IMG/VR virus record: IMGVR_UViG_3300018405_000004
Direction: 5' to 3' (one strand)
Source of the DNA: a virus
Length of the DNA stretch: 49,225 nucleotides
Below, one piece after another: positions 3,723 through 43,703 of this stretch (positions are counted from its first letter, which is position 1; every line of letters begins with the position of its first letter). Under the pieces are notes generated by a model, which was not told the DNA's origin, did no database searches, and saw nothing but the letters and a program-made list of their open reading frames with translations. The position numbers and the translations under genes were made by a program.

Positions 3723-5510
3723 TTAGAAACCTCGTTTCAGTTTGCCAGCGGTAGGGAATGCCTTCTCGAAATCGCTGATGGATGCGGAATCCTGAGCCAG
3801 AGGGGCAGGACGTGAGTTTTCTTTCTGGCTGATTGCCATTTTCACCAGTGACGGGAACGCAGATGGGTGAACGCCTTTAATGTCTACGCCGGACTGCTCA
3901 AGTGCGGTGCGGTAGACATCAGCAGCTGAGTCCATTGCAACAACATCACCAATCAGTGGGCGCACAGCCTGTTCAGCTTCACGGACTTCCCGGAAGTTCT
4001 GAGCGGCCTTTTTGGTTGCGCTGTCAGCTGCTAAGCAGATCGCAGAGTCCATAGCCGTTTTGGAGACTTTGTCGTCTTTCTTGTCATCGTCTTCATCGTC
4101 TCCGTCATCGGCGGGCTTTTTCTTTTTGTCGCAGCAGTCGTCTTCGTCATCGGCGGGCTTGTCTTTCTTGTCTTCTTTTTCGGCTTCATCGAGAGCCAGA
4201 AGTGCTTTGCGTACTTCTGCTTCCAGATCCGCGTCTGCTGCCAGTAATGGCTTCAGCGTGGCGCGAATAGCCGCGGCTTTGCGTTTGCTCATGTGCTTTA
4301 ACTCCGGTGGTAAAGAATCTGCGACCAATACGTCGCTTCCTGCGCGGCCTGTTTCGACCAGCGCCACGTGGTTCCCGATAATGTCCCGCATGATGCCGTC
4401 ATAGACTTCACCAGTCGGGGTCGTGCCGGGGGTCATGTCAGCGACGTATTGGTACGACGAAGACAATTCTTCCTGTTCTTCCGTCTCGATACCGGCGATG
4501 GCTGAGTTATCCCACACGGAAAGACCGTTAGTGAGATACGTTCCATCAAATGCGGCGTTCGAGTGCGTTACACCAACACGGTTTTCGTGAGGCGGGTCGC
4601 CAGGGAAGTCAGGTGTATGGATTGAAAGGAGTGGAATGTTGTTGAATGTTGCTACGGCTTTCTTCAGCTCATCAGGGTGACGCCAGAGCCGGTATATCTT
4701 CTCCGGGTCGAGCCCTAACCTCTCAGCGCCGGGAATCTCTCGCCCGAAGTAAGGGCAGACGTTGGCCTTGCTGATATTACTGACCTTAACCTGAAGCCTG
4801 CCGTTGCCATCAAACGTGCGCACTGAGGCGCGGTCGAATGCTAGGCTTTCTGTAATCCCGTCCATTGCGGGTTTCTTTTCCTCGCTGACGTATCTGACCT
4901 TTATGGTCACTGGCTGCCCAGGAGATTTCGGTGGGTGTACACCGACAACCTCCATTTTTGCGTTTCGAGGAAGAAGGGTTTCATCTTCATGCTTGTTGCT
5001 GGAAAGTCCGGTGACATCGAGGCCTTTATCACCCGGCTTTGTTTCTATCTGAAGCATTACGCCGCCGATACCGAACATCCCGGCGATCTTTTTCTCTTTT
5101 GAAGTGGAAAGAAATGCAGGATCAGATACGACCATTCCTTTCTTGATATCTCCACCCGGAAATAACTTTTTGGCGTCTTCCCTGCTCATCCCTCGATAAA
5201 GAGTTTCGCCACCCAAACTTCCCTTGCTTATCGCTGAGTCAATTCTTGCTACATCTGGATCTGACTTCTCACCCACTCGCAATTGAGAGTTTATTTTTAA
5301 GAAGTTGTCGCCCGAGTAGCTTGATATTGCTGTTTTTTCGTTAGTAGATAACTTTGCTCCGGTTGATTTTTTTTCTTCTTTTTTGCTGGTTATCTTCCCT
5401 TCAGCGCCAGCTACAACATCTCCGCTTTCATCAACTTTGACATGTGAGCCTTTTATCGTGATCCACTTATCTTCGTCCTCGGCTAGCGAGTAGGATTCGA
5501 GTTCGTCCAT
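3723..5510 (-). CDS. ADP-ribosyltransferase domain fused to a DUF2213-type prohead scaffold/protease protein (595 aa)
   Basis: aa 57-208 carry [18 protein letters not shown] (R106), FLSTS (135-137) and HEDETLLPR (E175, E177), which together make the R-S-ExE signature. aa 216-420 ([22 protein letters not shown]) are DUF2213-like. An acidic D/E/K linker follows. The gene lies between the MuF and capsid genes. Confidence 0.75.
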
Positions 5511-5796: not shown

Positions 5797-6639
5797 TTAT
5801 AACTTTTTATCCAGACCAGGGATAACAGGCGACCAAGTACAGCGGCAATTGATTTCCTCTCCTGGCATCACCCACTTGCCATCCAGATACATTCCCTTGT
5901 CGATATCGAACTTCTTGCCATCAGCTTTGACATGTGATGGTCGAGGTTCTTTACCAGCGTGAGAATGTCGCCAGATACCTTGCGTGATGCCAAGTGACTG
6001 CTGCCTTGTGGCTTGCATAACTGATGTCGCTTTGTTGTTCTGGTCACGAGCAATTAGAGCGGCACGTCGGCGGGTGATGCCGTAACGCTTCTGCAACTCA
6101 TCGGTGAGATATGACAGGTCACGACCTCGAGCCACAGAGCGCATCACAAGCCCTTCCACCTCGGTGAAATACTTCTCAGGGATGGAGCGTATCAATCCGA
6201 CGTTTTCGGCGATGGTAGCCTGAAGTGCGTTGTTCATCGGTGCGGTCATCTTGAACTCAACCGTGAAACCGGCAGTGTCGAGAGCGTTATGCAGTGACAC
6301 ATCAGAGTTCTTCATGGCATCTGAAGCGAACCGGTCAGAAAGCTTCTGCGCAATGCTGTCGAATGATTTCGTCCAGCGCTTAGCCAGTTTCTTCATTGCA
6401 TCACGCATAAACACGGCAGGAGATGCGTCCATTGCCACTGCTGCGCCGCTCGCTTTGTAGTTTGCGGTTAGCCAGTACACAACGGACTTTTGCATCTCTC
6501 TGACCTGTTTATCGAGTTGTTTTCGATACCAATCCTCAACACCTGCGTTAGGTCTTACCGGTGGTATCGTCTTCTGGCTCGTCGCTTTCGTCGATTTCTT
6601 CGTCGATTTCTTCATCGTCTTCTTCGAGGTCGATGTCAT
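5797..6639 (-). CDS. Head morphogenesis protein, MuF / SPP1 gp7 family
   Basis: 280 aa. C-terminal W..H....PRPSH..ADGK...PGEEINCRC motif; follows the portal gene. The start overlaps the portal 3' end by 92 nt. Confidence 0.8.
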
Positions 6640-8092
6640 CGCTTAGGTCCAGTGAGTGATAGGGTGATTCAGGGTCTTCGGCAATCTTTTCGCGAACTTC
6701 GTTGTTTGACAGCGCACCAGTCGCGACATACACCGCGTCAGTGTCTGCATCGATTTTCCGAATCTCCGCTTTATCCTTCGCGCTCATCTCGTAGAGAGGT
6801 TCGAATTCGAAATAGATTTCAGGGTCGATGTCGCCAAACTCGGATAGCTGAATGATGTCCAGAACGCGCTTCAGAGCAGTAGAGAAGATTGACTGCTGCA
6901 ACGAATGGATGTAGTCGTAGAAAACGCGAATCTCCCCGTCTGATGACGCATTCAGCCCGGCAGGAGCAATGCCCAGCAGCTTAACAAGTGGGATGCTTGA
7001 TACGGCTGCCATTTGCTCTTGCGCCTGAGCCTGAAGTACGTCGAGAGTGCCCAGTGGCGCGTTAACAAACTCAACCGTTTCCGGCTGCGTTGGGTCGTTG
7101 TCTGTAGCGAATGCGCCACGGTTATCACGACATTGGTTGAATAACTGCAGGCGGGTGATCAGCGACTCTGCACCACCACCTTGTAGGATGGTGCTCATGT
7201 TGGTACCGATGACCGGTACGCTAAAAGAGTGAATCATGTCGCTTACACTGTCACGGGTACGCAGCCAGTTATTCACGTATGGCTCGGCAATCTGAACCAG
7301 AGACAGACCACGGAAGTTATACGAGGCCTTCAGCAGGTCAGGAACCTGACGCGATACGAAATCAATCATGCGGCTGGCATGAACCGTCTTGCCCATCACA
7401 AACCACTGAGTCGGTTTGTAGAAGTCAGGGCTTAGAGGGTTCTGAGCGTTGTAGATGCCCGGATACGTCCATACCGGCTCGATAACCTGAAATCCCTTGA
7501 GGCTACCTTTGGCTATCTTCTTGTCGCTCAGGAATAACTTCGATTGCAGTTCGGTGTCATCAGTCCAGGCAGAGACGTTTTTGGGTGACGTGACATCGAT
7601 ATAAATCTGGCCGCCGCCGAAGTAGCCGTCATGCTCTGCTGCTTCACGGAACTTGTCACGAACGTGGAACCTGTCGAGTGCGTCGTTAAGCTTTTTAACG
7701 CGATCTGATTTATCCTCATCACCGACTGTCTTCAGCTTGATCCACTTGCGCGTCATCTCCTCGGCGATAGTGCCTACCATCTTCCGGTATTCAGGCTTTT
7801 GGGCCATCATTGCCAGATAGGGATAGCCGGGGAAGCTGTCGAGATTGCCGTAAGCATATCCAGCGCTGTATGCGTCGTTCAGCGCTCCGTAATCGCATGA
7901 GTCCATCGCGAGATAGGCGTTATGGAGATTTTCAGGGATAACCCCCTTTGGCGGCTCGTATCGCTTAAACTCTCTCGGCGGCTTAGCCTGAATCTCAGCG
8001 ACAGCCATCGGGTTAATTTTCATCTGAACCTTTTCAGGTTCTTTCACCGGCTCAGGCGCGGCGATTTCTTTCTTCCACCATTTCCACCGCAC
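6548..8092 (-). CDS. Portal protein (DUF1073-type)
   Basis: 514 aa, immediately downstream of TerL, with an acidic C-terminal tail. Confidence 0.8.
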
Positions 8093-39369: not shown

Positions 39370-39729
39370 TCAGAACTGGATGGTTGTTGTGTCGTTGTTG
39401 GTGTCCGTCAATGTCATCACGCCAGCAGCTGACCTTGTTCCTCTCGGAATGGTAACGGTACAGTAGGCTGACTGGACGTAAGGAAGCTTCATGGCTTCTG
39501 ATGCCATTTTGGTATTGATTAGCTGAGTGCCAGGCCAATGACCCAGGATGCGCTCGTAATACGGAATGCCCAACGTGGTGTCGTACCATGTCTCGCCCAG
39601 GAAAGTTGAGCAGGCGCTGGCGGCATCCTGAGCTACGGCGTAAGGGTTTGCCGTGATGGCAATACTCCCGGTGTCATCAAGGGAGATGTCCCATTTATCC
39701 GTATCGAGAAGAAAGCTTTTGGTGAGCAT
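39370..39729 (-). CDS. Baseplate wedge protein (gp25/W-like)
   Basis: GGAGAAAAG SD before the ATG at 39729. 119 aa. AQDAASACSTFLGE..YD...G pattern. Confidence 0.5.
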   Translation of the reverse strand: MLTKSFLLDTDKWDISLDDTGSIAITANPYAVAQDAASACSTFLGETWYDTTLGIPYYERILGHWPGTQLINTKMASEAMKLPYVQSAYCTVTIPRGTRSAAGVMTLTDTNNDTTTIQF

Positions 39730-39743
39730 CTTTTCTCCAGGCA

Positions 39744-39766
39744 ATAAAAAACCCGCCGAAGCGGGT
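39744..39766 (-). terminator. Intrinsic terminator after ant
   Basis: On the minus strand: CCCGC-TTCG-GCGGG followed by TTTTTTATT. A 7-bp-arm palindrome TTTCTTC-A-GAAGAAA lies at 39784-39798. Confidence 0.8.
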
Positions 39767-39826
39767 TGGTTATATGATTGAATTTTCTTCAGAAGAAATT
39801 TTTGTCCTCTGGTGATTAAGTGTCTT

Positions 39827-40702
39827 TTACCTGAGGCTCATCTGAGCGCGGTCTATCTTGTGGCGAATCATCTCCAGGTGATGTTGCAGCGATTGAAGCT
39901 GAAACAATGCAGCGTCAACCTCGTAACCCATTTGGCGCATCTCATTGAGCATCCGTCCCAGCGGGTTAGGGTTATCGCCGTTCGGTGTAAGCATGTTGGC
40001 CGGATAACGCCACGGTGCGCTAAGGGAGTGGTCATCAATGCCGCGCATCCAGCGGTACTGGTCGAAATAAGCCATTGAGTAGGAGATTGGCAGCGCCATT
40101 TGCTTATTGGCTTTGCCCAGGAATTCTCCCTCAATGGCATTGAGGTATTCCACCGCCTCGAAAATCTGCTCCGGGCGCAACTGGTGAATATGCTCAATCT
40201 CAAACTTCTGATGTACGAGCTTCCATATGTCAGGGTAAATCTTTCCTAAGCCGGTAGTGATGAGGCGTTCGGCAGTCTGACGAAGTGGGGTAAGTTGGGT
40301 GGCTGATGACAGGCGCGTTTTACGTGGATTAACGACCTCGCCTTTCGTCCAGTATTGATAAAGTACGTCATCGCATTCATCCTGGTAGCGGGCCACTTTC
40401 TCCCTAAGCTCCAGGCGAACCTTTCCAACATTGATTGTGTGCAGCCATCCGGCCAACTTCCTAAGCGGAAGACAAACCACTTCGCGACGCTGACTGTCAC
40501 CCGGAAGCTGCGTTGTGATAATCGCAACGGAGGTATTAAACCGGTTTTTAATCTTGGTAAATTGCGATGCCCAATCTAAACCCATCCCCTCTACTATTGG
40601 GCGCATTGGTGCTTGTGGCTACCCGTTGTGGCTAACTAAAAACAGGGTTGCACCGTGAAACGGTACATTGATAGTGCGATCTGCGATTGCTATACTGTTC
40701 AT
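39827..40702 (-). pseudogene. ant: Antirepressor Ant (P22_AR_N plus C-terminal domain) interrupted by an in-frame amber codon at codon 28
   Basis: Reading from the ATG at 40702 gives MNSIAIADRTINVPFHGATLFLVSHNG-TAG(40619-40621)-PQAPMRPIVEGMGLDW.... The MNSIAI start and PIVEGMGLDW match P22 Ant. The track ORF begins only at Met 40606. Confidence 0.75.
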
Positions 40703-40772
40703 GTTGGTTATTCCTTCTACGGGTCACTAACACGAAGCCCTGACTGCTGATACAGACGGGGCTTCAACTTTT
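40703..40772 (+). ncRNA. sar-like antisense RNA candidate covering the ant ribosome-binding site
   Basis: Plus-strand promoter TTGATA (40668-73), 17 bp spacer, TATACT (40691-96). Terminator hairpin GAAGCCC(40734-40)...GGGCTTC(40759-65) followed by AACTTTTAT. Predicted length about 70 nt. Confidence 0.5.
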
Positions 40773-40917
40773 ATGAACACTTCACGCCTTCCCTTGCTGC
40801 TGACTCCTTTAACCTGCGAATCACCTCATTGCTGAATGAGCGGTCATCTTTTTTTGCGCACTCTTCGAGATGTTTTTCCAGCCACTCTGGCATTCGCAAT
40901 GTTTTTACCTTGCTCAT
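40771..40917 (-). CDS. arc: Arc-like ribbon-helix-helix repressor (48 aa)
   Basis: ORF below the track cutoff: MSKVKTLRMPEWLEKHLEECAKKDDRSFSNEVIRRLKES. Lies upstream of ant and divergent from mnt. Confidence 0.7.
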   Translation of the reverse strand: MSKVKTLRMPEWLEKHLEECAKKDDRSFSNEVIRRLKESAAREGVKCS

Positions 40918-40941
40918 GCTACTCCCCCTCTTTTTGTATGT

Positions 40942-40981
40942 GGTACGCATACATAGTATTTAGGTACGCATTGATAGTCAA
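40942..40981. promoter_or_regulatory. Pant promoter plus operator repeats in the mnt-arc intergenic region
   Basis: On the minus strand: TTGACT (40976-81), 17 bp spacer, TACTAT (40953-58). GGTACGCAT direct repeats at 40942-50 and 40963-71 (21-bp period). GTATG-N7-CATAC inverted repeat. Confidence 0.55.
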
Positions 40982-41022
40982 TAGTTACCCACTTACTCTA
41001 TGTAAATAAAAAAGGAGTGAGT

Positions 41023-41271
41023 ATGGCTGAGCGTGCTTACAGACATCCACAGGTCAATCTGCGGCTGCCCGATGAGTTAAAGGAAAAGATAACCGAACTG
41101 GCTGATGCTAACGGACGTTCTGCTAATGCGGAAATGGTTGCCGCCATTGACGCATGGGTCAAAAAAAATGCACATATTAGAGCGTTAGATCTCGTTACGG
41201 TTGCTGAGCGCCTGATAAAGCTGGAAGAAGAGATGGCTGCTCTCAAAATCCTGTATGGCAAGGACAAATAA
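41023..41271 (+). CDS. mnt: Mnt-like ribbon-helix-helix repressor (82 aa)
   Basis: AAGGAG SD. VNLRLPDELKEKITELADANGRSANAEMV parallels P22 Mnt/Arc. C-terminal coiled coil. Confidence 0.7.
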   Translation: MAERAYRHPQVNLRLPDELKEKITELADANGRSANAEMVAAIDAWVKKNAHIRALDLVTVAERLIKLEEEMAALKILYGKDK

Positions 41272-41726
41272 TGTTTAGCCTTAGCAAGCAAGAGTGCGAG
41301 ATCATTAAAAGCATATTTAATACCGCAAAAGAAAACGATCTTCTGATTATAAAAAGAGCTATCAATGAAGTAAAAAACTGCAATGGCCTGTATCAACTCG
41401 TCATAAAAGCAGGTTCCGACCTGAATAAATCCAAGCTCTGTATCATTGAAAAAACCGGGCTTGGGGATAAGCTTTCTGGGCAACTCTCAATGATACTGTG
41501 GTTCCTCGTTAAGCCTAAGATTGAAAGACAGAAAAGGTTAAAATTTGGAATCACTGAGGCCATTTGGGTGTATGAAGATTTTCTATGTAAGCACCCAGGC
41601 CACTTTTTCCTAAACGGCAAGAAGTATCAGATCAAAAAAGGTATAAAAACAGGATTATTCAAACGCATACATCCGGGTCAACTAGTTGGGTGCGGGTGCA
41701 TGTCAAGAGTGGCGACTCCTTTTTAG
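41271..41726 (+). CDS. 151-aa protein whose C-terminus is a paralogue of the MuF head-morphogenesis domain
   Basis: The ATG overlaps the mnt stop (TAATG). GITEAIWVYED..NGKKYQIKKG..HPGQLVGCGC aligns with [30 protein letters not shown] of the MuF protein at 5797..6639. AT-rich. Confidence 0.65.
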   Translation: MFSLSKQECEIIKSIFNTAKENDLLIIKRAINEVKNCNGLYQLVIKAGSDLNKSKLCIIEKTGLGDKLSGQLSMILWFLVKPKIERQKRLKFGITEAIWVYEDFLCKHPGHFFLNGKKYQIKKGIKTGLFKRIHPGQLVGCGCMSRVATPF

Positions 41727-41730
41727 ACGA

Positions 41731-41754
41731 AAAACCCACCTGATGGTGGGTTGA
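41731..41754. terminator. Bidirectional hairpin terminator
   Basis: AAAA-CCCACC-TGAT-GGTGGG-TTGACTT. On the minus strand it is followed by TTTTCG. Confidence 0.7.
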
Positions 41755-41755
41755 C

Positions 41756-42154
41756 TTACATCCCCAATGAGTAGCTAATTTCCATTAGCGAAGCGTATCC
41801 ACCGCTTCCGCATACAGAGAAACTTATCCAGTATTTTTGCCCCTCATGGATCATTCCACGAATATCTTCATATTGCGGCTTCGATAGTTGGTCAAAATTT
41901 GTTGGCATTGCAAACACCTGACCATCACCTCTCGAGAACTGAATTAGCTTTATGGTATTGCCACTATCTGAGTATTGAAATGTTTTCGCCTTGAAGAGGC
42001 CTGAATGACCTTCACAACCCTCCAACACCTCATCAAGGTTCTTTATTCCCGCAGTCATTGTCACCTGGTCTTTATAAACCACTGGCTCTGGGGATGAAAG
42101 CGCAAGAAAAGGAACAAGCACAACTGTCGCAGCAAGAAATTTAACCTTCATCAC
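41756..42154 (-). CDS. Secreted (signal-peptide) protein of 132 aa, moron at the end of the spike operon segment
   Basis: MMKVKFLAATVVLVPFLALSS signal peptide with no lipobox Cys. AT-rich. ATGA overlap with the spike gene. Confidence 0.6.
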   Translation of the reverse strand: MMKVKFLAATVVLVPFLALSSPEPVVYKDQVTMTAGIKNLDEVLEGCEGHSGLFKAKTFQYSDSGNTIKLIQFSRGDGQVFAMPTNFDQLSKPQYEDIRGMIHEGQKYWISFSVCGSGGYASLMEISYSLGM

Positions 42155-42849
42155 TGTGGTCCGTCTGTAGTCGAGTTTCCTGATTCTACCCCACCATGGA
42201 CATGTGTCGACAACTGAATGCCGTTTCCGGTTATCTCTCCGGTTGCGGTAAGTGTACCGCCGAATGTCGCGTTACCAGCATAGCTACCAGAGCCCTGTGT
42301 CAGTTGTCCATTAGCCTCAATAACTGGCGCGTTAAGTGATATTTTGTCGTCAGCATTAACGATGACCGTGTTTCCATTAACCTGGACAACCAGCGGAGAG
42401 ACGATATCAATGCCGTCATTCGCAAACTTCACATACTGACTTGGCTCCGCATTGAGCAAGCCGCCGAGATAGATAGCGTCTGAGTAGTTATGCGTCCTAT
42501 TTGAGTTTGGTAGCGCTTCTTTTTTGGTTTTTTTCACCGAAGTTATATCGCGATCACATATGGCCAGCATGCCAATATCTCCAGCGACAGGGGGCATAAT
42601 CACCGCACTTGCTCCGCGCTGTAGTCGCCATACCGGAACGCCATAGATAACTGAGTTTGGAATCAGATCGCCGTTACCGGCGAACCCCTCAACCATTGGC
42701 TTTACCGCGACAACCTCGCCAGAATCATCAACTGACATAACCAGACCAATAGTGATGAAGTAGTTACCCATCATGAATTTTCGCATCAGGTACTGCATAG
42801 AGTTTGCATCTGTCGATACATCCTCTGGAGTTGTGGTGTAAAGGTTCAT
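42151..42849 (-). CDS. Baseplate spike/hub protein (Mu gp45 / P2 gpV-like)
   Basis: Start [10 protein letters not shown] at 42849, sharing one base with the upstream stop. 232 aa. Confidence 0.55.
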   Translation of the reverse strand: MNLYTTTPEDVSTDANSMQYLMRKFMMGNYFITIGLVMSVDDSGEVVAVKPMVEGFAGNGDLIPNSVIYGVPVWRLQRGASAVIMPPVAGDIGMLAICDRDITSVKKTKKEALPNSNRTHNYSDAIYLGGLLNAEPSQYVKFANDGIDIVSPLVVQVNGNTVIVNADDKISLNAPVIEANGQLTQGSGSYAGNATFGGTLTATGEITGNGIQLSTHVHGGVESGNSTTDGPQ

Positions 42850-43703
42850 CACTGTTTCTCTGTTAATTGTCCGATAGACGCCCATATGACGGTTGTCCAC
42901 GGACCTCCCTCTGTCCAGGAAGAAAGGTGATGGCTCGCAGACTGAACGGTATAAACGCCACTACCGTTAGGGAGTGACGTCTCCAATTGAATCTTCCTTC
43001 CCCTGACTATCAGGTCGCTATAGGTGCACTGAAACGTTATTCCAATCTGGGTAAATGTCGGGTAACCAATAAGACCAGTTTCAGGGCTAATAAGGGGTAT
43101 TTTTTCGTCAATCACCCCATTTATGGGCCAGATGTAAATTGTCTTTATTCTGTAATCTATATTGATTCCGGCTACTTTTGCGCACTCGTTAATCTGCTCT
43201 ATCGGGTCGCCAGTAAAATAAGGATTTTCAATCTGGGATGATACGCCATTATTCACAACGGCATAGTCGATGGACTTTGCGATAGAGATTATTATGTCCG
43301 CAACATTTGCCACGCCTTCAATGGAGAATGGTGGAGTTGCCAGTGAGTGCTCATAGCCAGTAGCAAAAGAGCTTATGATAAGTGGCGCATCTGGCATCTG
43401 GTTGTGGTCAATAAAACATGAGGTAATGGAACCGTAAAAAATAGGCTGGTTGTCAGCCCACACTTTCATGGTGTTCTGTTTTGCTCCGTTTAGCTGAATC
43501 CCTTTGTAGCTGAGCAGCCCCATATTTGCCAGACTTAATCCGTAAATCCTAGCTTCAAGGCTGGTTCCTGATATGCCTCCATACGCCCCCAATTCGATCT
43601 CTGATTTAATGTTATCTATTGTTAAAACATTATTGTCAGGCTCTTCAAAAACCCCCTCCTTAAGGGAGAATTGGAATTTAAGGCTTCGTTTTTTATATGT
43701 CAT
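42849..43703 (-). CDS. Baseplate hub protein candidate (284 aa)
   Basis: Position between the tape-measure-proximal genes and the spike. Confidence 0.45.

Follow-up and report, generated by a model that had tools for sequence, protein, structure and literature searches.

The 49,225-nucleotide stretch analyzed here (IMG/VR virus record IMGVR_UViG_3300018405_000004, hereafter the window) encodes at 41271..41726 on the plus strand a protein of 151 amino acids (aa), open reading frame 151 (ORF151), which by sequence profile and predicted fold is a MuF-domain protein. It consists of the MuF core domain alone, the N-terminal ~160 residues of the head protein MuF of the same phage being absent, and we refer to it and its homologs as mini-MuF. 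The gene ends a complete immI region of the P22 type, in which it is translationally coupled to a genuine Mnt, and mini-MuF is an accessory gene, rare and mobile, in a single widespread lineage of Enterobacterales temperate phages. By analogy and genomic context, we tentatively favor the possibility that ORF151 is a lysogen-expressed MuF mimic acting in superinfection exclusion or inter-phage interference.

The canonical MuF head protein of the window is encoded at 5797..6639 on the minus strand (Pfam Phage_Mu_F, E 7e-15; phrog_324, E 7e-101), immediately downstream of the portal gene (6548..8092; Phage_portal_3, E 1e-93). Pairwise BLASTP aligned residues 86-143 of ORF151 with residues 212-267 of this resident MuF at 36% identity over 59 aa (E 5e-7 for the pair). 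The homology claimed for the C-terminal ~60 aa in a preliminary description of this DNA is thereby upheld, but its extent was set too short. Comparison of the 22-member family profile with the window MuF by hhalign covered 117 columns (probability 98.2%, E 4e-14) and related residues 38-151 of ORF151 to residues 162-279 of MuF, so that about three quarters of the protein corresponds to the full PF04233 region, located at residues 160-268 of the resident MuF. The term paralog, used in the same description, holds in a loose sense and not in that of a recent duplicate of the resident MuF, the copy being ancient and divergent. On family level, all 22 mini-MuF members matched phrog_324, the family of the resident MuF, with a best E of 1.5e-8, and none of the 22 matched PF04233 at E <= 1 in the Pfam search. 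A weak Pfam match to DCP2 box A (E 0.003) was under the cutoff and taken as chance, as were the SPOP/MATH matches (E 0.03) that alone resulted from a PDB sequence search.

The AlphaFold2 (AF2) model of ORF151, calculated with the family alignment, reached a predicted local distance difference test score (pLDDT) of 94.8 and a predicted template modeling score (pTM) of 0.88. It comprises five helices followed by a small beta unit with a C-x4-H...C-x-C knuckle. A Foldseek search of this model against BFVD returned nearly exclusively models of minor capsid proteins, phage head morphogenesis domains, or MuF-like proteins (best E 8e-5; probability 0.9-1.0 for the best 25; query-based TM score, TMq, 0.45-0.55), among them a MuF-only protein of 160 aa from Pseudomonas phage NP3 (TM 0.55). 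Foldseek against the PDB gave no match (best E 1.5). Profile homology together with a model resembling other MuF models thus supports the MuF-C fold anticipated for this protein.

With MuF, SPP1 gp7, and 80alpha gp44 (PF04233; phrog_324), ORF151 shares a homologous core domain, as judged from profile and predicted fold, as well as the signature motifs GIT..W, H, NGK, and PG....C.C and a basic character; the head module of the resident phage uses the same family. ORF151 is about half as long as a canonical MuF, lacks the N-terminal region, falls below the Pfam threshold, and possesses an invariant fourth cysteine completing a C/H/C/C set. It is encoded in the tail/immI region on the opposite strand and coupled to a lysogeny repressor, and it is accessory, being found in ~1% of the lineage and beside a canonical MuF in the three elements checked. 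Whereas proximity to portal or terminase genes serves as a criterion for muf genes (PMC5576092), ORF151 is located ~33 kb from the portal gene, on the opposite strand, in the baseplate cluster.

ORF151 is a real gene under selection. The reading frame and the peptides quoted from it in the preliminary description are present as given, its ATG overlaps the stop codon of the mnt-like gene by one base (TAATG), and a Shine-Dalgarno sequence (AAGGA) is positioned 6 nt upstream of this ATG. Ratios of non-synonymous to synonymous substitution rates (dN/dS) of 0.10-0.39 were determined for the mini-MuF pairs with informative divergence. The AT-richness noted earlier is evident from a GC content of 38-39% in comparison to 48-52% in the flanks. 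The protein has an isoelectric point (pI) of 9.7 and contains no hydrophobic segment (maximal 19-residue hydropathy of 0.9). Within a collection of 5.8 billion proteins, full-length ORF151 is absent while ORF132 of the same contig is present (P0062); the gene caller of the source seems to have missed ORF151. Its sole copy in this collection is truncated to 80 aa at 97% identity (P0001).

The genes upstream of ORF151 show the layout of a P22-type immI region, with mnt divergent from arc-ant plus the sar RNA, in agreement with the P22 annotation. The mnt-like gene (41023..41271, plus strand) encodes a ribbon-helix-helix (RHH) repressor of 82-84 aa (Pfam Arc, E 6e-11; phrog_795, E 1e-21, the label of which is also that of the P22 Mnt annotation). 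Its start is assigned to the ATG at 41023 following AAGGAG, with the mechanically called reading frame beginning at a GTG at 41017. The arc-like repressor gene (40771..40917, minus strand; Pfam Arc, E 4e-5) encodes a protein 80% identical to the 48-aa Arc proteins of related loci and likely starts with MSKVKTL at 40917, the mechanical reading frame reaching 40950. Between both genes, a promoter and repeat scan combined with the P22 annotation as analog delimited a divergent control region (40935..41016). It contains a Pant-like promoter on the minus strand (TTGACT-17-TACTAT, 40981->40953). Candidate Arc/Mnt operators, by analogy, are a palindrome at 40935-40953 and a tandem repeat of 21 bp at 40942-40983, both within this region.

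A sar-like antisense RNA is located at 40703..40769 on the plus strand, based on a full-length match to Rfam RF00262 (42.5 bits, E 1.4e-6), 0.5 bit under the gathering score of 43. It is antisense to the start of ant, covering the ribosome-binding site of this gene and the arc-ant spacer, and is accompanied by a promoter-like site on the plus strand (40668-40696) and a hairpin with T-run (40734-40773). The ant antirepressor gene itself (39827..40702, minus strand; P22_AR_N, E 6e-34) carries an in-frame amber codon (TAG, 40619..40621) after codon 27, at a position where relatives have Glu (GEPYTPM). The reading frame resumes at 40606, the listed 259-aa reading frame being the downstream remainder, and the Ant protein made here may lack its N-terminus or have lost its activity. 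Since ORF151 is coupled to a genuine Mnt within a complete immI region, expression in the lysogen is the natural expectation, in line with the earlier proposal that it should be expressed from the prophage.

A word-indexed search with ORF151 alone returned no homologs. Relatives came to light only through an exhaustive HMMER search of 1.84 billion representatives and through a profile search. The HMMER search with ORF151 resulted in 43 matches, consisting of full-length relatives of 138-155 aa and, behind these, many MuF proteins of 250-350 aa matched via their C-terminal halves. The family profile led to 22 clusters of 34-60% identity, all of them annotated as hypothetical and devoid of Pfam domains, from Salmonella, E. 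coli, Enterobacter, Klebsiella, Yersinia, and Rouxiella. A basic pI (8.8-9.9) is common to the whole family. Invariant positions of the family alignment are G39, L72, C106, H111, G124, C141, and C143, and the sequence pattern of C106, H111, C141, and C143 (C-x4-H...C-x-C) makes a structural Zn site probable. The same four ligands are invariant in a second, more distant group of stand-alone MuF domains. One such domain, a 198-aa protein (locus L025, 562-1158; loci carry L numbers throughout), retains the C/H/C/C ligands; within 7 kb no head or portal gene was seen, and judged by eye, one neighbor looks like an antirepressor and another like a DUF4065-like protein. The occurrence of solitary MuF domains away from head modules may thus be a more general phenomenon. 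Variation within the family was observed for two mini-MuF alleles (L018 7001-7465 and L020 7001-7465), which share their first ~48 and last ~30 residues exactly but show only 40-55% identity in the center (residues ~50-125); this mosaic points to recombination in the middle helices and first hairpin, or to diversifying change there.

The family is rare, as indicated by scans of the GTDB species representatives and of JGI metagenomes, which revealed only one and two mini-MuF loci, respectively. In IMG/VR, at least 595 stretches contain the canonical MuF type versus 6-7 with mini-MuF, and among 5426 complete E. coli genomes ~5 carry the gene. The family lacks any Pfam, PADLOC, or source annotation, and our literature search turned up no description of MuF domains that stand alone or are expressed in lysogeny. 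What is new about mini-MuF is the architecture, the location, and the regulatory setting of its MuF domain; it would count as a new kind of system only once a phenotype is found.

Genomic contexts were counted over 12 independent lineages including the window. In 11 of them, mini-MuF resides in tail modules with the same E217/Pam3-type gene set; the flanking structural genes of the Rouxiella locus L017 look different, as judged by eye. Its slots are located between the tape-measure and hub genes, between the spike and gpW genes (window, L010, L022), or near tail fiber and integrase genes (L002-4, L021), and the orientation is antisense to the tail genes in 11 of the 12 lineages. An Mnt-like gene is found directly upstream in six lineages (window, L002-4/L021, L006/L012/L018-19, L020, L023, and L017), while no Mnt-like or other RHH gene occupies this position in the remaining six (L001, L008, L005, L010, L011, L022). 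Two loci separate the gene from its immI neighborhood: L022 shows the slot and convergent layout of the window without immI, and L028 has immI in the slot of the window without mini-MuF. Mini-MuF is therefore autonomous, and the coupling to mnt represents one of several arrangements. Wherever this could be checked, in three elements, mini-MuF was accompanied by a canonical MuF encoded beside the portal gene (window; E. coli prophage L012; IMG/VR contig 3300036796_000098, containing L021 and L033).

The function proposed for ORF151 builds on the known biology of canonical MuF proteins. The portal directs SPP1 gp7 to the procapsid; this protein is not needed for assembly and aids in initiating infection (PMC6316719). 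In 80alpha gp44 the PF04233 region spans residues 188-300; the protein is ejected with the DNA and binds and protects the genome ends, and it complements in trans from the cytoplasm of the recipient cell, whereas truncated forms are inactive (PMC7290940). Its incorporation requires the portal crown (PMC12889711). Furthermore, phage polymorphic toxins rely on the MuF domain for their delivery (PMC5576092, PMC5512222). Because gp7 and gp44 are recruited by the portal, ejected, DNA-binding, and needed right after injection, and because truncations of gp44 are inactive, a resident half-MuF could compete with an incoming MuF. Among the options raised in the preliminary description, a decoy serving exclusion appears the most attractive, as suggested by context and analogy. 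ORF151 would be made in the lysogen from Pmnt and would occupy a partner of the MuF of an incoming relative without doing its job. Possible partners are the DNA ends, the MuF dimer interface, or, at a later stage, the portal crown, and the outcome would be a reduced establishment or infectivity of heteroimmune relatives. Slightly more doubtful is the specific proposal that the truncated mimic poisons the first step after injection, or head completion, of relatives with the same MuF/portal type. An action at the stage of entry would spare the induction of the prophage itself, and antiterminated late transcription, running convergently through ORF151, would lower its expression during lytic growth.

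This mimic model is favored by the stop/start overlap with mnt, the completeness of the immI region, and the antisense orientation toward the tail genes in 11 of the 12 lineages. It is further in agreement with the accessory and mobile character of mini-MuF, which is absent from Pantoea phage PA-1 and from L028 and occurs in three different slots, with the co-residence of a canonical MuF, and with the membership of mini-MuF in the subfamily of the resident head protein. Several points weigh against it. A consensus scan did not find a Pmnt-like promoter, and expression of ORF151 thus relies on the P22 analogy. At L011, mini-MuF is co-oriented with the tail genes. A decoy acting at assembly would also hurt the progeny of the prophage itself. 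DNA binding of gp44 is attributed to a basic tail only partly overlapping PF04233. No PADLOC model matches mini-MuF or its neighbors. Finally, the frequent neighborhood of antirepressor genes and of genes for small exported proteins is left unexplained by mimicry.

Other explanations were evaluated against the same body of evidence. A moron for lysogenic conversion or anti-defense, directed at the host, unconnected with MuF biology, and reusing the MuF fold as a nucleic-acid- or protein-binding scaffold, would account for the low GC content and the presence/absence polymorphism, and for hot-spot slots in common with acyltransferase, YafO, and DUF4065-like genes; the distant stand-alone MuF of L025, embedded among reading frames with no head or portal gene in 7 kb (by eye), fits as well. 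We nevertheless regard this as rather unlikely, given that mini-MuF is only found in phage structural-gene regions, nearly all of one tail-module type, that the three checkable elements have a canonical MuF, and that in every case mini-MuF is nearest to the cognate phrog_324. A virion or ejection protein of accessory nature that serves the phage itself, recruited by the portal, packaged, and injected, e.g., to shield DNA ends or to counter a host nuclease, faces several objections. In 11 of 12 lineages the gene runs against the direction of the late operon, it is coupled to the lysogen-expressed mnt, it is far from the portal gene while 85-87% of muf genes adjoin portal or terminase genes (PMC5576092), the three elements checked already contain a canonical MuF, and only ~1% of the lineage has mini-MuF at all. 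This explanation is thus unlikely in our judgment, even though MuF-only minor capsid proteins of ~150-160 aa exist (Pseudomonas phage NP3), the gene of L011 is co-oriented with the tail genes, mini-MuF is basic like gp7 and gp44, and MuF is a known delivery module (PMC5576092, PMC5512222).

A further candidate role is regulation of the secondary immunity (immI) circuit through binding of DNA or protein, with ORF151 acting, for instance, as an anti-antirepressor or as a co-repressor at the promoter of the antirepressor gene. In nine of the 12 lineages, the mini-MuF unit is divergent from an antirepressor-type gene, namely Ant/P22_AR_N (window, L006, L018-20, L023), pRha (L001, L008), KilA-N (L010), or antirepressor-like reading frames assigned by eye (L017), and in the pRha and KilA-N loci mini-MuF takes the place of mnt. 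MuF proteins bind DNA (PMC7290940) and the family is basic; known MuF DNA binding, however, is not sequence-specific. Considering also that L005, L011, and L022 have no antirepressor nearby, that such a regulator would be redundant where Mnt and Arc are present, and that L028 runs the same immI without mini-MuF, we judge this role quite improbable. Least of all do we expect the toxin of a type II toxin-antitoxin pair with Mnt as RHH antitoxin, a partnership considered in the preliminary description. The directly upstream RHH gene with overlapping stop and start codons is the classical layout of such pairs and recurs in L002-4, L006, L017, L021, and L023. The adjacency is restricted to six of the 12 lineages, the RHH gene being absent in the others (L001, L005, L008, L010, L011, L022), and the RHH protein is a bona fide Mnt of a full immI with arc, sar, and ant. 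Neither Pfam nor PADLOC gave a match to a toxin or defense family, the only invariant polar residues are the C/H/C/C set with no conserved catalytic set, and the predicted fold is that of a virion protein domain. The toxin assignment was hence dropped as very improbable.

The position of ORF151 had been equated with that of sieA next to mnt in P22. This is correct insofar as both genes lie downstream of mnt on the same strand, as accessory genes between the immI control region and virion genes, and by analogy expression in the lysogen is expected for both. It does not extend to the arrangement, because sieA is served by a promoter of its own and comes only after orf59a and the terminator of mnt, while ORF151 overlaps the mnt stop codon. 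BLASTP found no alignment between ORF151 and P22 SieA at E <= 100. SieA is a membrane protein (maximal hydropathy of 2.6), in contrast to the soluble ORF151 (0.9). Lacking sequence similarity and a membrane segment, ORF151 was ruled out as a SieA-type protein.

Structural-protein mimics are used in interference between mobile elements, as exemplified by the capsid homolog Ccm of cos-type phage-inducible chromosomal islands (PICIs) and the TerS mimics of Staphylococcus aureus pathogenicity islands (SaPIs). In these cases, a diverged copy of a virion-assembly protein, carried by the resident element, perturbs a competitor, which for ORF151 is a proposal only. Moreover, Ccm and TerS mimics are satellite genes redirecting a helper phage, whereas ORF151 is a prophage gene copying a domain of the phage's own ejection protein. 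With the MuF polymorphic toxins (PMC5576092), ORF151 has the MuF domain and the occurrence in temperate phages in common. It differs from them by its location outside the packaging module and by the lack of a C-terminal toxin extension and of an immunity-like gene in the usual position. Since the MuF alignment runs to the last residues of ORF151, leaving no extra domains, a MuF polymorphic toxin was ruled out.

A possible effector of a different type is encoded in the head module of the window. The 595-aa protein encoded at 3723..5510 (minus strand) combines an N-terminal ADP-ribosyltransferase with an acidic KD-rich linker and DUF2213 (ADPrib_exo_Tox, E 2.5e-16; ART, E 9e-6; DUF2213, E 6e-45), while the DUF2213 protein of the E. 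coli relative L012 has only 408 aa. This fusion looks like an Alt-like injected effector, carried on a DUF2213 head-module protein and not on MuF.

In terms of genome architecture, the 2.4-kb block 39745..42150 is inserted between two structural genes, one for the baseplate spike (42151..42900; xxxxx_N and Apex domains) and one gpW-like (39370..39744). In Pantoea phage PA-1, without mini-MuF, these two genes are 36 bp apart. Downstream of ORF151, a GC-rich hairpin (41733..41752), followed by a T-run on the minus strand only, separates it from the convergent ORF132 (41756..42151, minus strand), a signal-peptide protein whose ATG overlaps the stop codon of the spike gene (TGATG). Homologs of ORF132 (10 clusters, 61-74% identity, 131 aa, two invariant Cys) belong to no known family and are always found directly behind the spike gene with overlapping stop and start codons, in prophage tail modules of the same type; one of these modules is from Serratia fonticola, and a homolog carries an annotation in Klebsiella pneumoniae. 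For ORF132, AF2 gave a poor model (pLDDT 57). ORF132 was rejected as a dedicated partner of mini-MuF in the window, as its homologs follow the spike gene with or without mini-MuF.

Small genes (131-194 aa) with a signal peptide or lipobox adjoin mini-MuF in 10 of the 12 lineages, for example in L001 (6541-7005), L005 (6572-6973), L006 (7121-7579), L010 (5944-6417), L011 (5448-5864), L022 (7482-7943), and L023 (7483-8013). They comprise at least six mutually unrelated sequence families in varying orientations. The small exported neighbors could be periplasmic exclusion factors in a common hot spot. The mini-MuF slot also holds a YafO-family toxin (L017 2860-3294, minus strand, E 5e-20) and a DUF4065-like pair assigned by eye (L020 7857-8730, minus strand), marking the site as an accessory-gene hot spot.

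MuF proteins occur in about one third of tailed phages (PMC5576092), yet what they do is ill defined, and no solved structure resembling the domain was found in the PDB. Mini-MuF represents a minimal, confidently modeled, and naturally stand-alone MuF core that, by analogy with P22, a prophage appears to express outside the late program. It can be considered a compact construct with which to study structure and binding of the MuF domain, the proposed Zn site among them, and offers a direct test of MuF action at DNA entry. If the phenotype were negative, mini-MuF would be an ordinary moron. If the mimic model is true, exclusion would be achieved by dominant-negative mimicry of an internal virion protein, a mechanism unlike those based on receptor masking, membrane blocks, repressors, or abortive infection, and ejection-protein mimicry would possibly constitute a new class of superinfection exclusion.

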